64,000 bases of DNA, taken from the NCBI GenBank assembly GCA_015067715.1, contig SVLY01000006.1, forward strand, positions 3,679 to 67,678, given 5' to 3'. The position numbers were made by a program, and so were the translations under genes. Shown piece after piece: positions 1 through 14,667 of this stretch. Under the pieces are notes generated by a model that was not told the origin of the DNA, ran no database searches, and saw only the letters and a program-made list of their open reading frames with translations. Each line of letters opens with the position of its first letter. The stretch's first letter is position 1. This stretch comes from Oscillospiraceae bacterium. Its GTDB lineage: Bacteria; Bacillota; Clostridia; Oscillospirales; QAMX01.

Positions 1-2262
1 TATCTCAAGGGAGTTTTTCTCCCGGAGAAGCTCTCCGGAAAAGCGGAGGACGAAGGGGGAAAGAGAGGCAATGCCGATATCCGTTCCGTTCAGCCGTACG
101 CCGGCGGTGTTTTCCACGGCGCCAAGGTCGAGCTCGTAAAAGTCTCCGCCCAAAAATTCTCCGTCAAGCTCAAATTCTCCGGAATAGGTGGCCTCGCCGG
201 AAAAATCTCTGCCGAAATACTTTTCCCATGGGCCGCACTCTGCCGGAATACCCTGGGGCGAGGGGACGTTGTCCTTGTGGGCGCCGGTGCGGTCTATGAA
301 GAGCTCTGCGGTCTTTGTGAGAGTAAAGCCGCACAGAACGGGGCGGACGTCCACGGGGGAGAGAGCGGGCTCAACTCCGTCCGGCGCTGTGTCGGAAAAG
401 AGTATTGCCGCAGTTTCGCCAAAGTCAAGGGTGAGAGAGGTGGCTTCAAAGGGTTCAACTCTGCCGTCCTCGATCCAAAGGCGGTATGCCGGGCGGTTCT
501 CGGCAAAGCGGATATCGCCCTTTTGCACACGGCAGTCTTCGTTGAAAACGAGGTAGAGCGTTGCGCCGTCGGGAAGATTTCGCTTTGAAAGGCGGAAATT
601 TTCGTTTTCCACGGCGGCAACGGGGGTGGCACGGGAGGAGAGGAAGGGGGCAAGCTTTTGGCTCACGTCTTCGGGAACGAGAGCGCCTTCGGGGATCAGC
701 ACCTTTTCGTAGGCGGCAAGCCCCATGGAGAGTCTGCCGTTGTTGATCTCTGCCCGGCGGACGAAATCGTCGTCGATAAGGTCAAAGGAACAGCCCTGTT
801 TTTCAAGCTCAACGCCCAGCGCGTGGAAGGCGTCGGCATTTTCGCCCCGGCAGACGTTTTCGCAGGGCATATAAAGTGCGTTTTTCACCTCTGCCGTGCC
901 AAGTCTTGCAAGATAGGCCAAACGGGAGAGGTATTTGTTTATGGCGTTCAGGTGTTCAAAGCCCGGGCGAACGTCCGTGAAAAGGGGACGGATCCTGGGC
1001 TGGGAATAGTGGAGGGAGTTGCAGTTGAAAACGTTTATGCCTCTCACCGCCTGAGCGCCGAAGACGTAGCGCATTATCTCCGGAGTGGTGCCTTCGCCGT
1101 AGCAGGCGAGGCTTTCGGTAAGGGCGAGACCCGTTCCCACCTGTGCCGCCGCAGAGGATGCAAACCTTGGGAAGAAGGGCACGGAATATTCGACCCTTTG
1201 GGTGCTGAGCCCCTCCGGGTAGATATGGCGGTAGATAACGTCCACCCCGGGAACGTCGAAGAGTCTGAGCGCCTCAAGGGGTCTTGCGTAACAGGGCAGG
1301 CGAAGTATCATGCTCTCAAGGTCGTGGTCGTTGTCCACGTGGCCGATGGCCATAATGCCGTTTTCGTGGCACCAATCCTGAATGGGCTTGAAAAAGTTTT
1401 GGTTGACAAGCTTTGAGACCAGCCTTCGCCTGTCGGCCATGGCAAGCTTTTCTTTTTCGGTAATCGCAGGCGCCCGGTAGGATATCTGGGGCAGGTAGTC
1501 CAGAATATCGTAGCCGTACTCCTCGAAAAACATATCCTCAAAGCCCCGGGTCCAGCCGTCCGGCTCGACGGCGGCTTCGTCGTCGAAAATATAGGTGTAA
1601 TAGGTTCCGAAATCCTCGCCGAGGAACTTTTTGTAGCGCTCGTGGGTTAGCTCCAGGAAAAGCCGGGTGGTCTCGGGATTCATAATGTCGGTGTCGAATT
1701 CCTCGTCGTGGTCAACACGGAAGGCCACGCGGATATAGCGGTATTCAAAGACCTTGGAAACGCCGTCGCAGACGATGGGACCGCGAATACGGGTGAACGT
1801 GCCGTCCTGGGCTTTGGTGAATGCCGCAAGAAAGCTCTCGTGGTTTTCCGGGGGAGTGTAGGTCATGCCCTTTGCAAGGGGTATCTCAATAGCCGCGGCA
1901 CGGTGACGGCCAAGCTCGGGGTGCATTTTGGCGATCTTTTTGCAGGCACTTCCCGAGGGCCAGCCGCCCTCGTCGTAAAGCCACGCCGCAAAGCCCATGG
2001 ACTTTGCCTTTTGGGTGAAATATTTGAAGATCTCAAAGTATTCGTCAGAGAGGTATTCGGGCTTCATGTCCGCGTCCACGGTCTGGGGACGGAAGGCTTT
2101 AGGCTCGGGAATAACGTAAACCGCGCCTATTCCGGCACTTTTCAGCATGGCAAGACCGCGGTCAATGCCCTCTTTGGTTATCTCCGTGTCCCATACCCAG
2201 GCATAAGCCGAAGCGTATTGGGCGGTGGGGTTTTTGAAAAGAGTACGGTCGAAAGCGTTCAT
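1..2262 (-). CDS. Large glycoside hydrolase, GH106 alpha-L-rhamnosidase-like (3' end runs off the window)
   Basis: Not in the ORF track, presumably because its stop lies outside the window. Manual translation from ATG 2262 (RBS GGGAG) gives MNAFDRTLFKNPTAQYASAYAWVWDTEIT...GIGAVYVIPEP...WLYDEGGWPSG, which resembles a GH106 N-terminal barrel. I did not check the whole frame. Confidence 0.7.
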   Translation of the reverse strand, partial: MNAFDRTLFKNPTAQYASAYAWVWDTEITKEGIDRGLAMLKSAGIGAVYVIPEPKAFRPQTVDADMKPEYLSDEYFEIFKYFTQKAKSMGFAAWLYDEGGWPSGSACKKIAKMHPELGRHRAAAIEIPLAKGMTYTPPENHESFLAAFTKAQDGTFTRIRGPIVCDGVSKVFEYRYIRVAFRVDHDEEFDTDIMNPETTRLFLELTHERYKKFLGEDFGTYYTYIFDDEAAVEPDGWTRGFEDMFFEEYGYDILDYLPQISYRAPAITEKEKLAMADRRRLVSKLVNQNFFKPIQDWCHENGIMAIGHVDNDHDLESMILRLPCYARPLEALRLFDVPGVDVIYRHIYPEGLSTQRVEYSVPFFPRFASSAAAQVGTGLALTESLACYGEGTTPEIMRYVFGAQAVRGINVFNCNSLHYSQPRIRPLFTDVRPGFEHLNAINKYLSRLAYLARLGTAEVKNALYMPCENVCRGENADAFHALGVELEKQGCSFDLIDDDFVRRAEINNGRLSMGLAAYEKVLIPEGALVPEDVSQKLAPFLSSRATPVAAVENENFRLSKRNLPDGATLYLVFNEDCRVQKGDIRFAENRPAYRLWIEDGRVEPFEATSLTLDFGETAAILFSDTAPDGVEPALSPVDVRPVLCGFTLTKTAELFIDRTGAHKDNVPSPQGIPAECGPWEKYFGRDFSGEATYSGEFELDGEFLGGDFYELDLGAVENTAGVRLNGTDIGIASLSPFVLRFSGELLREKNSLEI

Positions 2263-2372
2263 GGCATCTGATCTCCCGGGGGATGAAAAAATCTATGTTT
2301 CGCTCAAAGATATTGTACCACAAACCGGGTCCCGGTGCAAAGGGGAATTTGAAAAACGTGGGGGAGTTGAGC

Positions 2373-2520
2373 ATTTCAATGAAATCGCGCATAGCGCGAT
2401 GAAATCCTCACTCCGTTCGGATGAAATCTGCTTCGCAGATGAAATTAAATCCGTCCCTGCTCCCGACGGAGTCGGATTTCATCACGAAGTGATCTATTCC
2501 GTCCGCAAGGACGGATTTAG
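2373..2520. repeat. Array of short hairpins separated by (G)ATGAAAT(C) linkers
   Basis: Linkers at 2379, 2398, 2420 and 2438, plus an inverted GATTTCATC at 2475. Inserts are self-complementary (gcgc-ata-gcgc, tgc-ttc-gca). taaatccgtcc 2446-2456 pairs with ggacggattta 2509-2519. Confidence 0.75.
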
Positions 2521-2522
2521 CT

Positions 2523-2564
2523 GAAAAGAACCCACTTTTGTTAAAACAAAAGTGGGTTCTTTTC
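2523..2564. terminator. 20-bp perfect inverted repeat, terminator-like
   Basis: gaaaagaacccacttttgtt-aa-aacaaaagtgggttcttttc, directly downstream (minus strand) of the duplicated tRNA 3' end. Confidence 0.7.
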
Positions 2565-2595
2565 TTATGCGGGTAACAGGATTTGTGAACCTGCA
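2562..2595 (-). repeat. Duplicated 3' end of tRNA-Leu (att-like direct repeat)
   Basis: ttcttatgcgggtaacaggatttg 2562-2585 is identical to 2737-2760. The match continues as aacctgca after a 2-nt insertion. Confidence 0.85.
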
Positions 2596-2699
2596 TCCAG
2601 GCGGAAGTTTGGGATAAGACCTAAGTCTTGGGATAAGCGCCTGGATGCTGTTAAATCTCCTGCGGAGATTTAATAGGTTCTGCATCGGCAAACCTGAAT

Positions 2700-2742
2700 T
2701 AAGAATAAGACCCCCGGGACAAGCCCGGAGGTCTTATTCTTA
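2700..2742 (-). terminator. Hairpin directly downstream of tRNA-Leu
   Basis: taagaataagacccccggg-acaag-cccggaggtcttattctta. Confidence 0.65.
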
Positions 2743-2823
2743 TGCGGGTAACAGGATTTGAACCTGCACGGGTGAACCGATGGAACCTAAATCCATTGCG
2801 TCTGCCAATTCCGCCATACCCGC
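2743..2823 (-). tRNA. tRNA-Leu (anticodon TAG), CCA not encoded
   Basis: Reverse complement GCGGGTATGGCGGAATTGGCAGACGCAATGGATTTAGGTTCCATCGGTTCACCCGTGCAGGTTCAAATCCTGTTACCCGCA. Anticodon stem ATGGA/TCCAT, loop TT-TAG-GT, long variable arm, GGTTCAAATCC T-arm. Confidence 0.95.
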
Positions 2824-2864
2824 GTATTCGGTTGACGGCTTCTCCGTCAACCGAGCTTCCGTTA

Positions 2865-2893
2865 ATTATATAATTTTTCGGTCTCTTTGTCAA
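2865..2893 (-). promoter_or_regulatory. Sigma-A promoter of tRNA-Leu
   Basis: Minus strand TTGACA (2893-2888), 17 nt, TATAAT (2870-2865). Confidence 0.8.
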
Positions 2894-3384
2894 TAAAGGG
2901 AATAGATTATCTCGTAAAAGATATCCTGAAGAATGGGCATAACTGCGGCGCCTGCGATGGCGGCGATTATCACCATGATTATGCCGGTAACAACTGCAAT
3001 TGCCAGGGAGAGTAGGTAGAAAAGCAAAATGCCCCGGGCCATGTTGCGCTTGTTTATCTTGTGGCATCCGCCGCAGGCCCAGACGATGGTGAGAACAAAG
3101 CCCACAAGGGGAATGCAGAGCAGAAGAAAATTCCCAACGTACCCCCAGGCAGAAACGGGAGCGTAACGGCTGGTGGGGGCGGGACGGGGATCGGGATCGG
3201 CCGGAGGAGTGGGCTGGGGAATAGGCTGGGGTTGGGGCTGAGGTTGGGGCTGGGGTTCGGGTTCCGGTTCCGGCTGGGGCTGGGGAATGGCAACGGGCTG
3301 GACAACTTCGGCTTTTGTTCCGCATTCCGGGCAGAACAGATCGCCGTCTTCAAGCTTAGTGCCGCATTCAGCGCAGAATTTCAT
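2890..3384 (-). CDS. Zinc-ribbon membrane protein with a Pro-Gln/Pro-Glu linker
   Basis: N-terminal CAECG...FCPECG ribbon, (PQ/PE)n linker, two hydrophobic segments. Confidence 0.8.
   Translation of the reverse strand: MKFCAECGTKLEDGDLFCPECGTKAEVVQPVAIPQPQPEPEPEPQPQPQPQPQPIPQPTPPADPDPRPAPTSRYAPVSAWGYVGNFLLLCIPLVGFVLTIVWACGGCHKINKRNMARGILLFYLLSLAIAVVTGIIMVIIAAIAGAAVMPILQDIFYEIIYSLY
3211..3285 (-). repeat. Intragenic 6-nt tandem repeat encoding PQ/PE dipeptides
   Basis: ggctgg/ggttgg/ggttcc hexamer run. Confidence 0.7.
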
Positions 3385-11772: not shown

Positions 11773-12351
11773 GTGAAAAATAAAGGTACAAAGACGTCCC
11801 TGTGGACGCTGTTCATAACCTTTTTCAAGCTCTCGGCATTTACATTTGGGGGCGGATACGCCATGCTTCCCCTTTTGCACGAGGACTGTGTTGAGCGCAA
11901 AAAGTGGATAACCGACGAGGAAATGCTGGATATGCTGGCAATTTCCGAGTCCACCCCCGGCCCCTTCGTTGTAAACGCGGCCACCTTCGTGGGCTACCAC
12001 CAGGCCGGCGTTCTTGGGGCGGCGGCATCTACCTTTGGCGTGGCTCTTCCCTCGTACATTGCCATTATGATCATTTCCGTGCTGTTCACCCTTTTCCGGG
12101 ACAACGTCTGGGTGGACGCGGCCTTCCGGGGCATCCGGGCGGCGGTGGTTGTGCTTATTATCAACGCCGTTGTAAAGCTCTCAAAAAAGCTGAAATGGAA
12201 CGTTCTCTGGATAGCCGTTGCCCTTGGCGCATTTTGCGTGAGCCTGTTTTTGGACATCAACATCATCTTCGCCCTCATCGCCGCCGGTATCGTGGGCGTC
12301 GTGTGGACGGTCATTTCCGGCCGCCGCATGAACAAAAAGGCGGGAAAGTAA
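11773..12351 (+). CDS. Short-chain chromate transporter (CHR family)
   Basis: FTFGGGYAM and SESTPGP motifs. GTG start after GGAGG. Confidence 0.88.
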   Translation: MKNKGTKTSLWTLFITFFKLSAFTFGGGYAMLPLLHEDCVERKKWITDEEMLDMLAISESTPGPFVVNAATFVGYHQAGVLGAAASTFGVALPSYIAIMIISVLFTLFRDNVWVDAAFRGIRAAVVVLIINAVVKLSKKLKWNVLWIAVALGAFCVSLFLDINIIFALIAAGIVGVVWTVISGRRMNKKAGK

Positions 12352-12415
12352 ATAGCAGTATTTCAAGTAGATAAAACCCCGGAGGAAAGTGTAGTGCTCT
12401 TAACGGAGAAATTAT

Positions 12416-12450
12416 AAAAAACTGACAGGTCAAACCGACCTGCCAGTTTT
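12416..12450. terminator. Terminator-like hairpin inside the left end of the island
   Basis: aaaaactgacaggtc-aaacc-gacctgccagttttt. Confidence 0.65.
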
Positions 12451-12531
12451 TGCTTATTGGTGGGGTCTGGGCAACTGCCCGGTTAACCGCATCCGGTGGA
12501 CAGCCGGACGCTCTGCTTGCCATGCGCGCTA

Positions 12532-12563
12532 ATCGTAGGGCGGGGGCTTGCTCCCGCCGAAAT
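12532..12563 (+). repeat. GTAG-type REP, extragenic copy
   Basis: atcgtagggcgggggcttgctcccgccgaaat is the exact reverse complement of 13724-13755. Confidence 0.85.
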
Positions 12564-12580
12564 CCAACAGACTGTGAATG

Positions 12581-12609
12581 TTGATAATTGATTGTATCTG
12601 TGATATAAT
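12581..12609 (+). promoter_or_regulatory. Sigma-A promoter of the cargo gene
   Basis: TTGATA, 17 nt, TATAAT with extended TG. Confidence 0.65.
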
Positions 12610-12646
12610 CAATTCAAGAAAATTGACTTTGATAAGGTAAAAGAGT

Positions 12647-13264
12647 ATGAATGGAAGACATTTATTTCTTACATCTAGCGGGTTATCATGTGAAATGAAG
12701 AAGATGTTTTTTGATATTATCGGAAAGCGTCCCGAAGATGTAAAAGTGCTTTGCATCCCTACGGCTGGAATCGAAACAGATGGAGCCAGAGAAGGAATAG
12801 CAGTATGTTTACACGAGCTTTCGTTAATGGGGATTCATTATGAAAATATATTAGTATATAATCTGGAATTATTACTTTCAAAAGATTACAAGAGAACATA
12901 TTCGGCATATATTAAAGACCCTTTTCCGATCACCAGACTGTTGACTGTTGAGGAAATAGGGGCGTTTGATGCTGTTTTTGTCAGTGGTGGTGATAGTTCT
13001 ATACTGTGTCGTGAAATGGTACGCACAGGATTCGACGAAGTGATTGCAAAGGCAATTACGAATGGTCTTGTGTATGTTGGCATCAGTGCAGGAAGTATGT
13101 ATGCGGCAGGAAACTTAGACGAAGGATTACATATTATTGATAATCCGATAATTCCCCATTGGAATGGTACAAAAACATTTGAATTGCCATATGATAGAGA
13201 CGAGGTTAAGCTTATTGATGGACAAGCAGTTTATATTGAAGATGATTATATTGGTCTAATGTAA
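12647..13264 (+). CDS. Peptidase S51 / class I glutamine amidotransferase-like protein
   Basis: LFLTSSG, IPTA, FVSGGD, YVGISAGS (nucleophile elbow) and IIPHW motifs. Clearly AT-richer than the flanking genes. Confidence 0.8.
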   Translation: MNGRHLFLTSSGLSCEMKKMFFDIIGKRPEDVKVLCIPTAGIETDGAREGIAVCLHELSLMGIHYENILVYNLELLLSKDYKRTYSAYIKDPFPITRLLTVEEIGAFDAVFVSGGDSSILCREMVRTGFDEVIAKAITNGLVYVGISAGSMYAAGNLDEGLHIIDNPIIPHWNGTKTFELPYDRDEVKLIDGQAVYIEDDYIGLM

Positions 13265-13371
13265 ATGAAAAGAATTACCAAATCCAACATACCGAATAGT
13301 TTACCGTAGCATCCGTTGTGCTTGCTGCGGTTGCTAACTAAGAGAAAGCGGCGGGATCACGCCTACTTCTC

Positions 13372-13872
13372 TTATTCTTTTGAATATAGCTTGTCCAATT
13401 CCCATTGCTTTGGGTTATTCGCAATATATTCCGCAATCTCATGATAGTCTTCGCGACCGCGAATCACATGCTCATAAAACGAATTTTGAAACAGCTTATC
13501 AATAGGCTGCACCTTTTTACACTGTCTGGTTGTAAGAGATTTATACGCACAAACGATATCCATGATCTTAGGGCGGGGGCTTGCTCCCGCCGTTTCCTCC
13601 AACAATAGGATCGCATGAATATGGTTGGGCATGATCACATATTGGTCAACTTTCAGCGAAGGATATCTTTGCTCCAGCAATACCAACTGCTCCTGCGCAA
13701 TTTGACCGTATGCGGTATATTGAATTTCGGCGGGAGCAAGCCCCCGCCCTACGATACGGGATAACAGGCACCGTCTGCTTTGGGTGCAGATGGTAATAAA
13801 ATACGCACCGGCGGTGCTGTAATCATAGTGATCCAGGCGAGGGTGTTTTCTTTTCGGTAAGTTATTCTCCAT
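13372..13872 (-). CDS. REP-associated tyrosine transposase (RAYT, Y1/HUH superfamily)
   Basis: RKHPRL, YFITICT, IMPNHIH (HUH), FQNSFYEHVIR and YIANNP (catalytic Tyr). ATG at 13872. Confidence 0.88.
   Translation of the reverse strand: MENNLPKRKHPRLDHYDYSTAGAYFITICTQSRRCLLSRIVGRGLAPAEIQYTAYGQIAQEQLVLLEQRYPSLKVDQYVIMPNHIHAILLLEETAGASPRPKIMDIVCAYKSLTTRQCKKVQPIDKLFQNSFYEHVIRGREDYHEIAEYIANNPKQWELDKLYSKE
13569..13592 (+). repeat. REP copy inside the RAYT ORF
   Basis: tagggcgggggcttgctcccgccg; encodes AGASPRP on the minus strand. Confidence 0.85.
13724..13755 (-). repeat. REP copy inside the RAYT ORF, inverted relative to 13569-13592
   Basis: 32/32 identity to the extragenic REP; encodes IVGRGLAPAEI. 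Confidence 0.85.
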
Positions 13873-13968
13873 AAATATCACCAAGGCTATTATATAGCAA
13901 GATCCGCAGTTCACAATGCCGACTGCGGATTTTTCCATTAAGAACACGAAGTAAAACTCCGGGGTTTT

Positions 13969-14667
13969 TTATCTTATTGTATAGCCGTTCAGTTTCTTTC
14001 TCCGCTCCCGCCAGTCGGGGATGTATTTTTCGACCTCGGCGTGGAAGCTTTTTGAGTGGTTTGGATGGAGGAAATGGCAGAACTCGTGGACGATAACGTA
14101 TTCTGCGCACTCTGTTGGCACGGAGATAAGAGCCGTGTTCAGGGTGACGGTGTTTTTCGAGGGCATACAGCTTCCCCAACGGGAGGTCATCTTTTTGAAC
14201 CGGAGCTCCGGAAAGGGGAATAAACCGTTGAAAAGGGGGTATAGCCCAAGGCAGAGCCCGGTGAGCTCAAGCCTGCACTGTCCCGAAAGCCAGCTCTCCG
14301 CCGCGCATCTTACTGCCGCGGCAGAGCCGAATTCCGGCAGACCCAGCCAAAGCACGTCTCCGGAGAGTGAAAAAACGGGTCGCTCAGACCAGTGCGGATC
14401 AAGGGTTAGCTCACGGCCGTGGTAGAAAAGCTTTTCGGATACGGGGGCAGGGGAGCTTTGACCAAGTCGCAAAAGGGCGTTGCGGACGAAGTCCGACCTC
14501 TGTAAAAGCACGGCTCTGGCCTCGAAAAAGCTCATCCATGACGGATATGAAACGCATACGCGTCCGTCTTGACGGACGCGTATGTTTATGTTTTTCACTT
14601 TTTTGGGGGTGAATTCGCAGGCCGCAGAGATATCTCCAAAGCTTACCGTTTCGGTACGGGCGGTCAT
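13969..14667 (-). CDS. YgjP/DUF45 (SprT-like) zinc metallopeptidase
   Basis: KNINIRV, MTSRWGSC and YVIVHEFCH...NHS motifs. Confidence 0.85.
   Translation of the reverse strand: MTARTETVSFGDISAACEFTPKKVKNINIRVRQDGRVCVSYPSWMSFFEARAVLLQRSDFVRNALLRLGQSSPAPVSEKLFYHGRELTLDPHWSERPVFSLSGDVLWLGLPEFGSAAAVRCAAESWLSGQCRLELTGLCLGLYPLFNGLFPFPELRFKKMTSRWGSCMPSKNTVTLNTALISVPTECAEYVIVHEFCHFLHPNHSKSFHAEVEKYIPDWRERRKKLNGYTIR

Follow-up and report, generated by a model that had tools for sequence, protein, structure and literature searches.

A family of repeat-bounded cassettes in rumen and gut Oscillospirales, probably seated in terminator loops and able to carry a RAYT gene

In a 64,000-nt window of an Oscillospiraceae genome (the whole stretch analysed here, G000:C102:3679-67678, from a source assembly, G000, of 2.69 Mb), the island at 12385-13956 holds a RAYT-like (REP-associated tyrosine transposase) gene, three copies of a repetitive extragenic palindrome (REP) and a peptidase gene. 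The island is probably one copy of a family of cassettes, 0.36-1.64 kb in length and bounded by terminal inverted repeats (TIRs), that occurs in rumen and gut Oscillospirales. On balance, the anatomy of its ends leads us to favour the view that a bidirectional intrinsic terminator was already present at the site and that the cassette integrated into the loop of this terminator, whose two half-stems would now form the arms on either side. Among the possible modes of movement we judge mobilisation in trans by another enzyme, with the RAYT and REP as passenger, to be the likeliest, though no better than an even proposition.

The island stands between converging genes for a chromate transporter (11773-12351, +) and a YgjP-type metallopeptidase (13969-14667, -), which enclose a spacer of 1617 nt. 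Most of this spacer has a G+C content of 0.33-0.49, compared with 0.52-0.61 in the flanks. At its ends, 12373-12384 and 13957-13968 form a perfect 12-nt inverted repeat that extends, with a 2-nt gap, to 12369-12384 and 13957-13974; these are the complementary outer arms described in the original prediction. The 19-bp inverted repeats that it had placed just inside them are likewise there, at 12394-12412 and 13929-13947, matching at 16/19 positions and each separated from its arm by 9 non-matching bases. Together, arms and 19-mers make an inverted repeat of about 41 nt, the score of which was reached by 0/2000 shuffles and by 0/1684 equally spaced control pairs from the window. The two inner hairpins attributed to the island were also recovered (12417-12451 and 13894-13938), the left one terminator-like and the right one without a T-run on the strand facing the peptidase gene.

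That TIRs bound the island was borne out in other genomes, where the same repeats pair, always between different arms that are complementary to one another. The family repeat has a core 19-mer and spans about 27 nt overall, conserved between copies; the GC-rich 9-18 nt just outside it vary by locus and are complementary within a locus. For a test of pairing, the best inverted match was sought downstream of each left end in the 33 elements for which 300 nt or more of downstream sequence was available. Both arm and repeat were found at the two ends in 12 of these (the window, L126, L204, L237, L210, L217, L219, L223, L233, L235, L236 and L239), and complementary arms only in two more, L203 (18/18) and L228. 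With the flank alone as query, the match was equalled by at most 5/500 shuffles for 13 of 41 ends; for L217, L223, L235 and one end of the window the correct partner was found, but 7-42/500 shuffles did as well.

Among the 12 paired elements and L203, an A-run precedes the left arm and a T-run follows the right arm in every case (13/13), and an open reading frame (ORF) of at least 80 aa that points into the cassette has its stop no more than about 90 nt from an arm (13/13). Nine of the 13 have such an inward-ending ORF on both sides, i.e., they lie between converging genes. The arm duplexes of these elements have energies of -12 to -34 kcal/mol, and all cassettes are lower in G+C than their own flanks. 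Such an arrangement of arms is that expected for a cassette in the loop of a bidirectional intrinsic terminator. A clean direct target-site duplication is not visible, as the original prediction had said: the linkers between arm and repeat are A/T-rich and 3-9 nt long, and the shared trinucleotide that can be read in most of them is indistinguishable from chance.

A degenerate 19-mer scan of one genome per species (185,579 species) returned 68 single matches, compared with about 70 estimated by chance. In seven of the 68 (L116, L117, L126, L132, L160, L165 and L167, from Oscillospiraceae, Faecousia and Limivicinus), the repeat is followed by the same hairpin and module as in the window. Two further matches, L125 and L129, come from two Eubacteriales bins and combine the exact 19-mer with a different conserved continuation, common to both, and an ORF of 162 aa; they may represent a second cassette subfamily. 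The ORF behind the L129 repeat, judged by eye from its sequence, is no evident transposase. By BLAST, 4 of 401 genomes of a sample of the order contain the module itself; within Faecousia, the genus of L126, the figure is 20 of 251.

Two divergent copies are worth recording beside the intact ones. In the window's own genome, C4:9680-9850 (L002) is a decayed solo left platform with a repeat remnant, terminator hairpin, module and REP, no cargo and no recognisable arms; it is 80% identical to window positions 12418-12560. At G009:C18 (L200), around 150-190, the repeat region forms an 11-bp hairpin without mismatch, both sides of which depart from the family consensus; these compensating-looking changes hint that part of the repeat folds alone.

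Movement of the cassette as a unit is supported by a twin in a Faecousia genome (G623:C66), 1.64 kb long, with other arms and between other converging genes. Over 684 nt its RAYT half shares 86% identity with that of the window, and over 256 nt its module shares 80%, whereas murA is only 66-68% identical between the two genomes. These belong to different families, since the window's family comprises 35 genomes in the collection and the genus of G623 more than 300. Homology runs from the left repeat to the start codon of the cargo ORF and resumes about 30 nt past the cargo stop codon, from where it continues to the right repeat; an ORF for a HAD hydrolase takes the place of the S51-family peptidase ORF (12647-13264, +), a gene that the original prediction had passed over, and this is the sole ORF difference. 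In the same-genus genomes G001 and G002, no match to the RAYT gene was found at E≤1e-10. The backbone is more alike than the core genes, stands at another site and has had its cargo ORF swapped; the unit therefore moves whole and carries the RAYT and REP with it. On a plain reading of these sequences, the whole cassette, including RAYT and REP, was transferred horizontally, in keeping with the original suggestion of a route for the horizontal spread of RAYTs.

Exchange of cargo is also seen across the family. A XRE-type regulator with a small ORF, 82-87% identical between copies, is the cargo in G054, G053, G573 and G633, with different arms in each, and a DUF559 protein is common to G052, G573 and G529. 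Cassettes with the same cargo stand at different sites in different genomes. Further cargo comprises DUF4417, a PNPOx-like protein, a GNAT acetyltransferase, kinase-like proteins and a HAD hydrolase. In the window, the promoter and cargo ORF are bracketed by 13-nt direct repeats, a sequence by which the REP is usually extended on its 3' side in these cassettes and that also brackets the cargo of the G623 twin (L237, near 1050 and 1830). These direct repeats may mark the point of cargo exchange.

The remaining features of the window are collected in Table 1. The module spacer had no Rfam match, with nothing close to any gathering score. The RAYT gene is given there from its ATG; an alternative, longer GTG frame (to 13947) would enter the right repeat.

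Table 1. Features of the island and its ends in the window, and loci with an internal REP pair.
Feature	Position	Strand	Basis or comparison
Left arm: A-run and GC-rich half-stem, locus-specific	12369-12384	.	Complementary to 13957-13974; arms different at all other family members
Left linker, 9 nt, between arm and repeat	12385-12393	.	No complementarity to right linker
Left TIR, 19-mer	12394-12412	+	Conserved across family
Inward-facing bidirectional terminator-like hairpin	12417-12451	.	Hairpin at this position in other members too
Conserved module spacer, about 80 nt	12452-12531	+	80% copy on own contig C4; kept in G009, L116, L126, L165, L167 and the G623 twin
REP copy 1: GTAG tag, 8-bp stem, 4-nt loop	12532-12559	+	Repeat and inverted-repeat search
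13-nt direct repeat, copy 1	12560-12572	+	Copy 2 at 13280-13292; the pair brackets promoter and cargo ORF
Strong promoter-like site preceding cargo ORF: TTGATA, 17 nt, TATAAT, with TG	12581-12609	+	Conserved in L165 and the G623 twin
Cargo ORF: S51-family peptidase, 205 aa, G+C about 0.36	12647-13264	+	PF03575, E 2.7e-15
13-nt direct repeat, copy 2	13280-13292	+	Same bracket in G623 twin
Degenerate hairpin 3' of cargo ORF	13304-13330	.	Counterpart in G623 twin is a perfect hairpin
Decayed REP remnant, CTAC tag	13349-13366	-	Repeat search and comparison with G623 twin
RAYT-like Y1 (HUH) gene, 165 aa from ATG at 13869	13372-13869	-	NF047646, E 3.7e-17
REP copy 2, in RAYT frame just past HUH motif; codes TAGASPRPK	13565-13592	+	
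REP copy 3, in RAYT frame ahead of HUH motif; codes VGRGLAPAE; inverted relative to copy 2	13728-13755	-	
Promoter-like site of RAYT gene	13889-13916	-	Order repeat, hairpin, -10 box, RAYT also in G048, G008 and G623
Hairpin beside right repeat	13894-13938	.	Same place in G623, G498, G048 and G008
Right TIR, 19-mer	13929-13947	-	16/19 to left one
Right linker, 9 nt	13948-13956	.	
Right arm: half-stem and T-run; last bases overlap stop codon of peptidase gene	13957-13974	.	
Loci with internal REP pair	Window 13565-13592 and 13728-13755; L019, L031, L032, L033, L035, L037, L038, L041, L048		

The RAYT-like protein falls below curated cut-offs (62.6 bits compared with 80 for NF047646, and 19.4 compared with 23 for PF01797), while its HUH and tyrosine motifs, MPNHIHAI and SFYEHVIR, align with those of all 14 homologues. 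Four weaker paralogous matches lie elsewhere in the same genome, on C101, C45 (with an in-frame stop) and C53 (one full and one partial), and C54:7666-7755 (L003) is a decayed internal RAYT fragment in which one REP is kept and the HUH region is gone. With up to 3 mismatches allowed, the 2.69-Mb assembly contains 70 copies of the 21-nt REP core, of which 65 are exact; they often lie at contig ends or in arrays. In such arrays (C26:25720-26778, C30:5828-7088 and many contig ends), REPs of the same orientation are spaced at 236-680 nt, and a few recurring left and right flanks are combined in varied ways, which makes the REP look like a joint between modules; other palindromic repeats are interleaved. 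Relative to the RAYT gene of the window, one REP lies 812 nt past the 3' end, the decayed one lies 6 nt past it, two are inside and none is upstream.

The placement of two of the three REPs in the RAYT reading frame, which the original prediction did not mention, recurs among RAYT genes of this group. In the window, the two are mutually inverted, 135 nt apart, and flank the HUH motif. An inverted pair at the same two places is present in 10 of 15 homologues (34-100% identical) at a level that 0/300 codon shuffles reached; one other homologue stands at 5/300 shuffles and four have no pair. Every paralogue has a GTAG-tagged stem-loop sequence of its own, shared by both copies in the gene. For two of the paralogues in the window's genome, the internal unit is also found outside the gene, with four copies each in all. 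The conserved RAYT motifs VGxG and xAPT are encoded by the GTAG tag, which bears on the co-evolution of REP families and their enzymes.

Pieces of the island were recovered at 100% identity in 4/4 metagenome runs, and the right junction was bridged in two of them. In these runs (X2, X16, X17 and X19), the bins that hold a REP (12470-12636 and 13472-13805) reached a summed contig depth of 650-3000, compared with 1-20 elsewhere; in these gut metagenomes, the REP is therefore spread over many organisms at very high abundance.

According to the mechanism that we propose, the terminator split by integration of the cassette would be compensated by an inward-facing hairpin at each cassette end; the left one in the window (12417-12451) would block read-through from the chromate-transporter gene. 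The left end, with terminator, module of about 80 nt, REP and promoter, would act as an expression platform for an exchangeable ORF, and the right end would consist of hairpin, promoter and RAYT. The insertion into a terminator loop put forward in the original prediction is supported by the terminator-like arms found throughout the family, but the empty site with the rejoined hairpin, which it named as the check, was not recovered from same-genus genomes, from relatives of G051 and G623 or from metagenome contigs. Because no such site was found, terminator-loop integration is read from the anatomy of the ends across loci.

The missing empty site is the first of several observations that weigh against this account. 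In G001, of the same genus, both flanking genes are present 291 nt apart with no island, and the spacer contains no rejoined hairpin, although this is a weak test as the spacer cannot be aligned at 78% identity; in G002, also of the same genus, a different neighbour gene occupies this place. When metagenomes were scanned with the YgjP protein, no match exceeded 39% identity. Relatives of G051 reached a flank identity of at most 71%, with no empty site, and for the G623 locus the best left flank, 78% identical, was not syntenic and likewise gave none. Among Logan contigs of the four runs, no join of 12384 to 13957 was found among 15 of 68 joints, and one contig ends at 12367; these contigs are uninformative on this point. 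The pairing of ends is also incomplete: 19 of the 33 elements had no partner end, most of them with 1.5 kb of sequence or less or at a contig end, and L202 is ambiguous, its best partner being itself a complete palindrome. Further 19-mer pairs, which the original prediction suggested seeking, exist in other genomes, but in the window's own genome the pair is unique and the end repeats have only chance matches of 12-14 nt elsewhere. The left arm of the window mirrors the last codon and stop codon (AGATAA) of the peptidase gene, which would be compatible with a long ancestral stem and equally with an inverted copy of the right flank. Finally, the paired ends enclose different cargo, one of the two contents originally envisaged, but neither a DDE enzyme, the other, nor any transposase except the RAYT was found in any cassette scanned for cargo. 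No larger element with these ends was found in five cassette-rich genomes either; a pattern scan of these gave 7-11 repeat-like sites each, compared with 1-4 for a control pattern, and the only same-contig pairs were cassettes already known.

The lack of another transposase brings into view the possibility, which we hold to be real but unlikely, that the RAYT is the cassette's own transposase, with RAYT copies autonomous and RAYT-less ones dependent on them in the manner of REPINs (REP doublets forming hairpins) or miniature inverted-repeat transposable elements (MITEs). In single-stranded DNA, arms and repeats would then pair into one long stem, and the HUH enzyme would cut and rejoin at its base and enter exposed hairpin loops without target duplication. 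In none of the cassettes was a DNA-processing gene other than the RAYT found, and there is no evident direct target duplication. The family repeat adjoins the RAYT gene in 6 of 31 RAYT loci (the window, G623, G498, G693, G048 and G008), about 80-130 nt upstream of the RAYT start in five of the six; in G693 only the far end repeat was found. The order of repeat, hairpin, -10 box and RAYT is kept in genes that are 34-39% identical and belong to two families (for G048, 33.5% by tblastn, and 39%). At the other end, the cognate REP is a regular component: at least ten cassettes (the window, the C4 copy, L165, L203, L216, L217, L219, L223, L233 and L235) have it either 14 nt inside one repeat or directly after the module. 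The RAYT may be more than a passenger and belong to the element itself.

Part of the distribution of RAYT genes speaks against this. The module is present in 3 of 8 Faecousia genomes with a close RAYT (at least 69% identity) and in 17 of the 243 others, a comparison uncorrected for kinship, yet 12 of the 20 module-positive Faecousia genomes, which are metagenome bins of unassessed completeness, have no RAYT homologue at E≤1e-25, and such homologues are no commoner in module-positive genomes (8/20) than overall (108/251). G573 has three cassettes and no RAYT homologue at the same threshold, and G009, which is 97% complete, has the module and no RAYT match at E≤1e-10. RAYT orthologues that are 81-83% identical occur without the repeat, flanked only by REPs, and the repeat bears no resemblance to the REP. 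Studied Y1 enzymes use subterminal hairpins and are not known to use terminal repeats, which also counts against the RAYT as the mover. Mobilisation in trans, as inferred in the original prediction, is favoured by the cassette genomes without a RAYT homologue at E≤1e-25, but no transposase with these ends was found, and because of this our reading of movement in trans names no enzyme.

A more far-reaching version of the RAYT-driven account, and a rather speculative one that we would not expect to hold, is an active single-strand transposon system. The enzyme would recognise the repeat stem and enter folded terminator loops, and excision would restore the terminator; the REP pair in the RAYT frame, co-varying between paralogues, would be the enzyme's own recognition site and the seed of dispersed REPs and REPINs. 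If true, this would tie 'domesticated' RAYTs to a form that is still mobile and resembles their ancestor, and it would account for their spread between lineages as well as for the rise of new REP families.

The arms might alternatively be a product of integration, made when about 15-20 nt of one flank are copied in inverted orientation. In most members the arms match almost perfectly, unlike the imperfect repeats just inside them; in the window the left arm mirrors the last codon and stop codon of the peptidase gene, and there is no empty site to contradict such an origin. A pre-existing terminator, on the other hand, explains for free the terminator make-up and position of the arms in 13/13 elements, as well as their location between converging genes in 9/13, and we know of no transposition mechanism that produces long inverted target duplications. 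We consider this origin of the arms improbable. It is hardly credible that the inverted repeat is a chance or local feature of an ordinary acquired island, unrelated to mobility: the ends are unique in their own genome and the exact-pattern scan matched about as often as chance would, but other elements have the same paired repeats around other cargo and the G623 twin ends exactly at the repeats.

Integron attC sites, dif/Xer sites and Tn3-type ends were considered as candidates and dropped on account of an apparent mismatch in layout.

The use of a hairpin as a target has precedents. IS1397 and ISKpn1 integrate in REP loops and group IIC introns next to terminators; the former encode a DDE transposase and the latter a reverse transcriptase. 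The target of IS1397 is a conserved REP, whereas the cassettes stand between locus-specific terminator-like arms, and group IIC introns land after the stem, whereas the cassette would lie in the loop. With the IS200/IS605 family the island has in common the Y1 HUH enzyme class, a hairpin close to each end and no obvious target duplication; it differs in having TIRs, in inner hairpins that are unlike between ends and between copies, and in that no conserved target tetranucleotide was seen. Mobile insertion cassettes with passenger genes are also known. Like these and MITEs, the present cassettes have TIRs common to copies at different sites, mostly no transposase, passenger genes and sizes from 0.36 kb (for MITEs, passages of PMC3733652), but here the search for a parent insertion sequence with these ends found none, no target duplication is clear and the target would be a structured one.

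The closest published relatives are the TIRtrons or TIRYT genes of Di Nocera et al. (2013), in which, according to passages of PMC3733652, a RAYT-like Y1 gene lies between TIRs, as in the window; REPs inside palindromes are reported there as well. The premise of the original prediction that RAYT/HUH enzymes do not use TIRs was too strong in view of these elements (PMC3733652). Their repeats, as described in the same passages, mostly have a GGGGWSAS motif, which is absent from the cassette repeats, and form families within one genome, whereas the window's own genome has one decayed module only. The cassette repeats also bound units without a RAYT and sit inside locus-specific half-stems, and cargo ORFs are exchanged between them. 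RAYT-REP systems are portrayed in passages of PMC5581495 and PMC6006769 as single-copy and vertically inherited, with REPtrons that do not transpose as units and horizontal transfer inferred from patchiness only. The window resembles REPtrons and REPINs, as far as passages of PMC2817692, PMC6006769 and PMC5581495 describe them, in its GTAG-tagged REP with 70 copies, its associated RAYT and the absence of a near-identical gene duplicate; it differs in that the unit is bounded, found at different sites and 86% identical across families, and in that two of three REPs are inside the gene. REPs overlapping the ends of RAYT genes and REPs in other genes have been noted (passages of PMC3733652). Full-text searches (article text; passages of PMC2817692, PMC3733652, PMC5581495 and PMC6006769) gave no description of REP pairs within RAYT genes or of cassettes in terminator loops. 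What is new here is the combination of one repeat family bounding both RAYT-carrying and RAYT-less cassettes, locus-specific terminator-like half-stems at each complete copy, exact exchange of ORFs on a platform that is conserved, and direct evidence for transfer between families.

A bounded unit that carries RAYT and REP between bacterial families is therefore a concrete vehicle that can be tested, and the passenger reading gives RAYT-REP systems a route between lineages. The cassettes lie where converging genes would share a terminator and bring a hairpin at either end, the left one terminator-like; a gene could in this way be added at such a terminator. The cassettes behave as a plug-in expression platform, in which the ORF is exchanged exactly between promoter and terminator.

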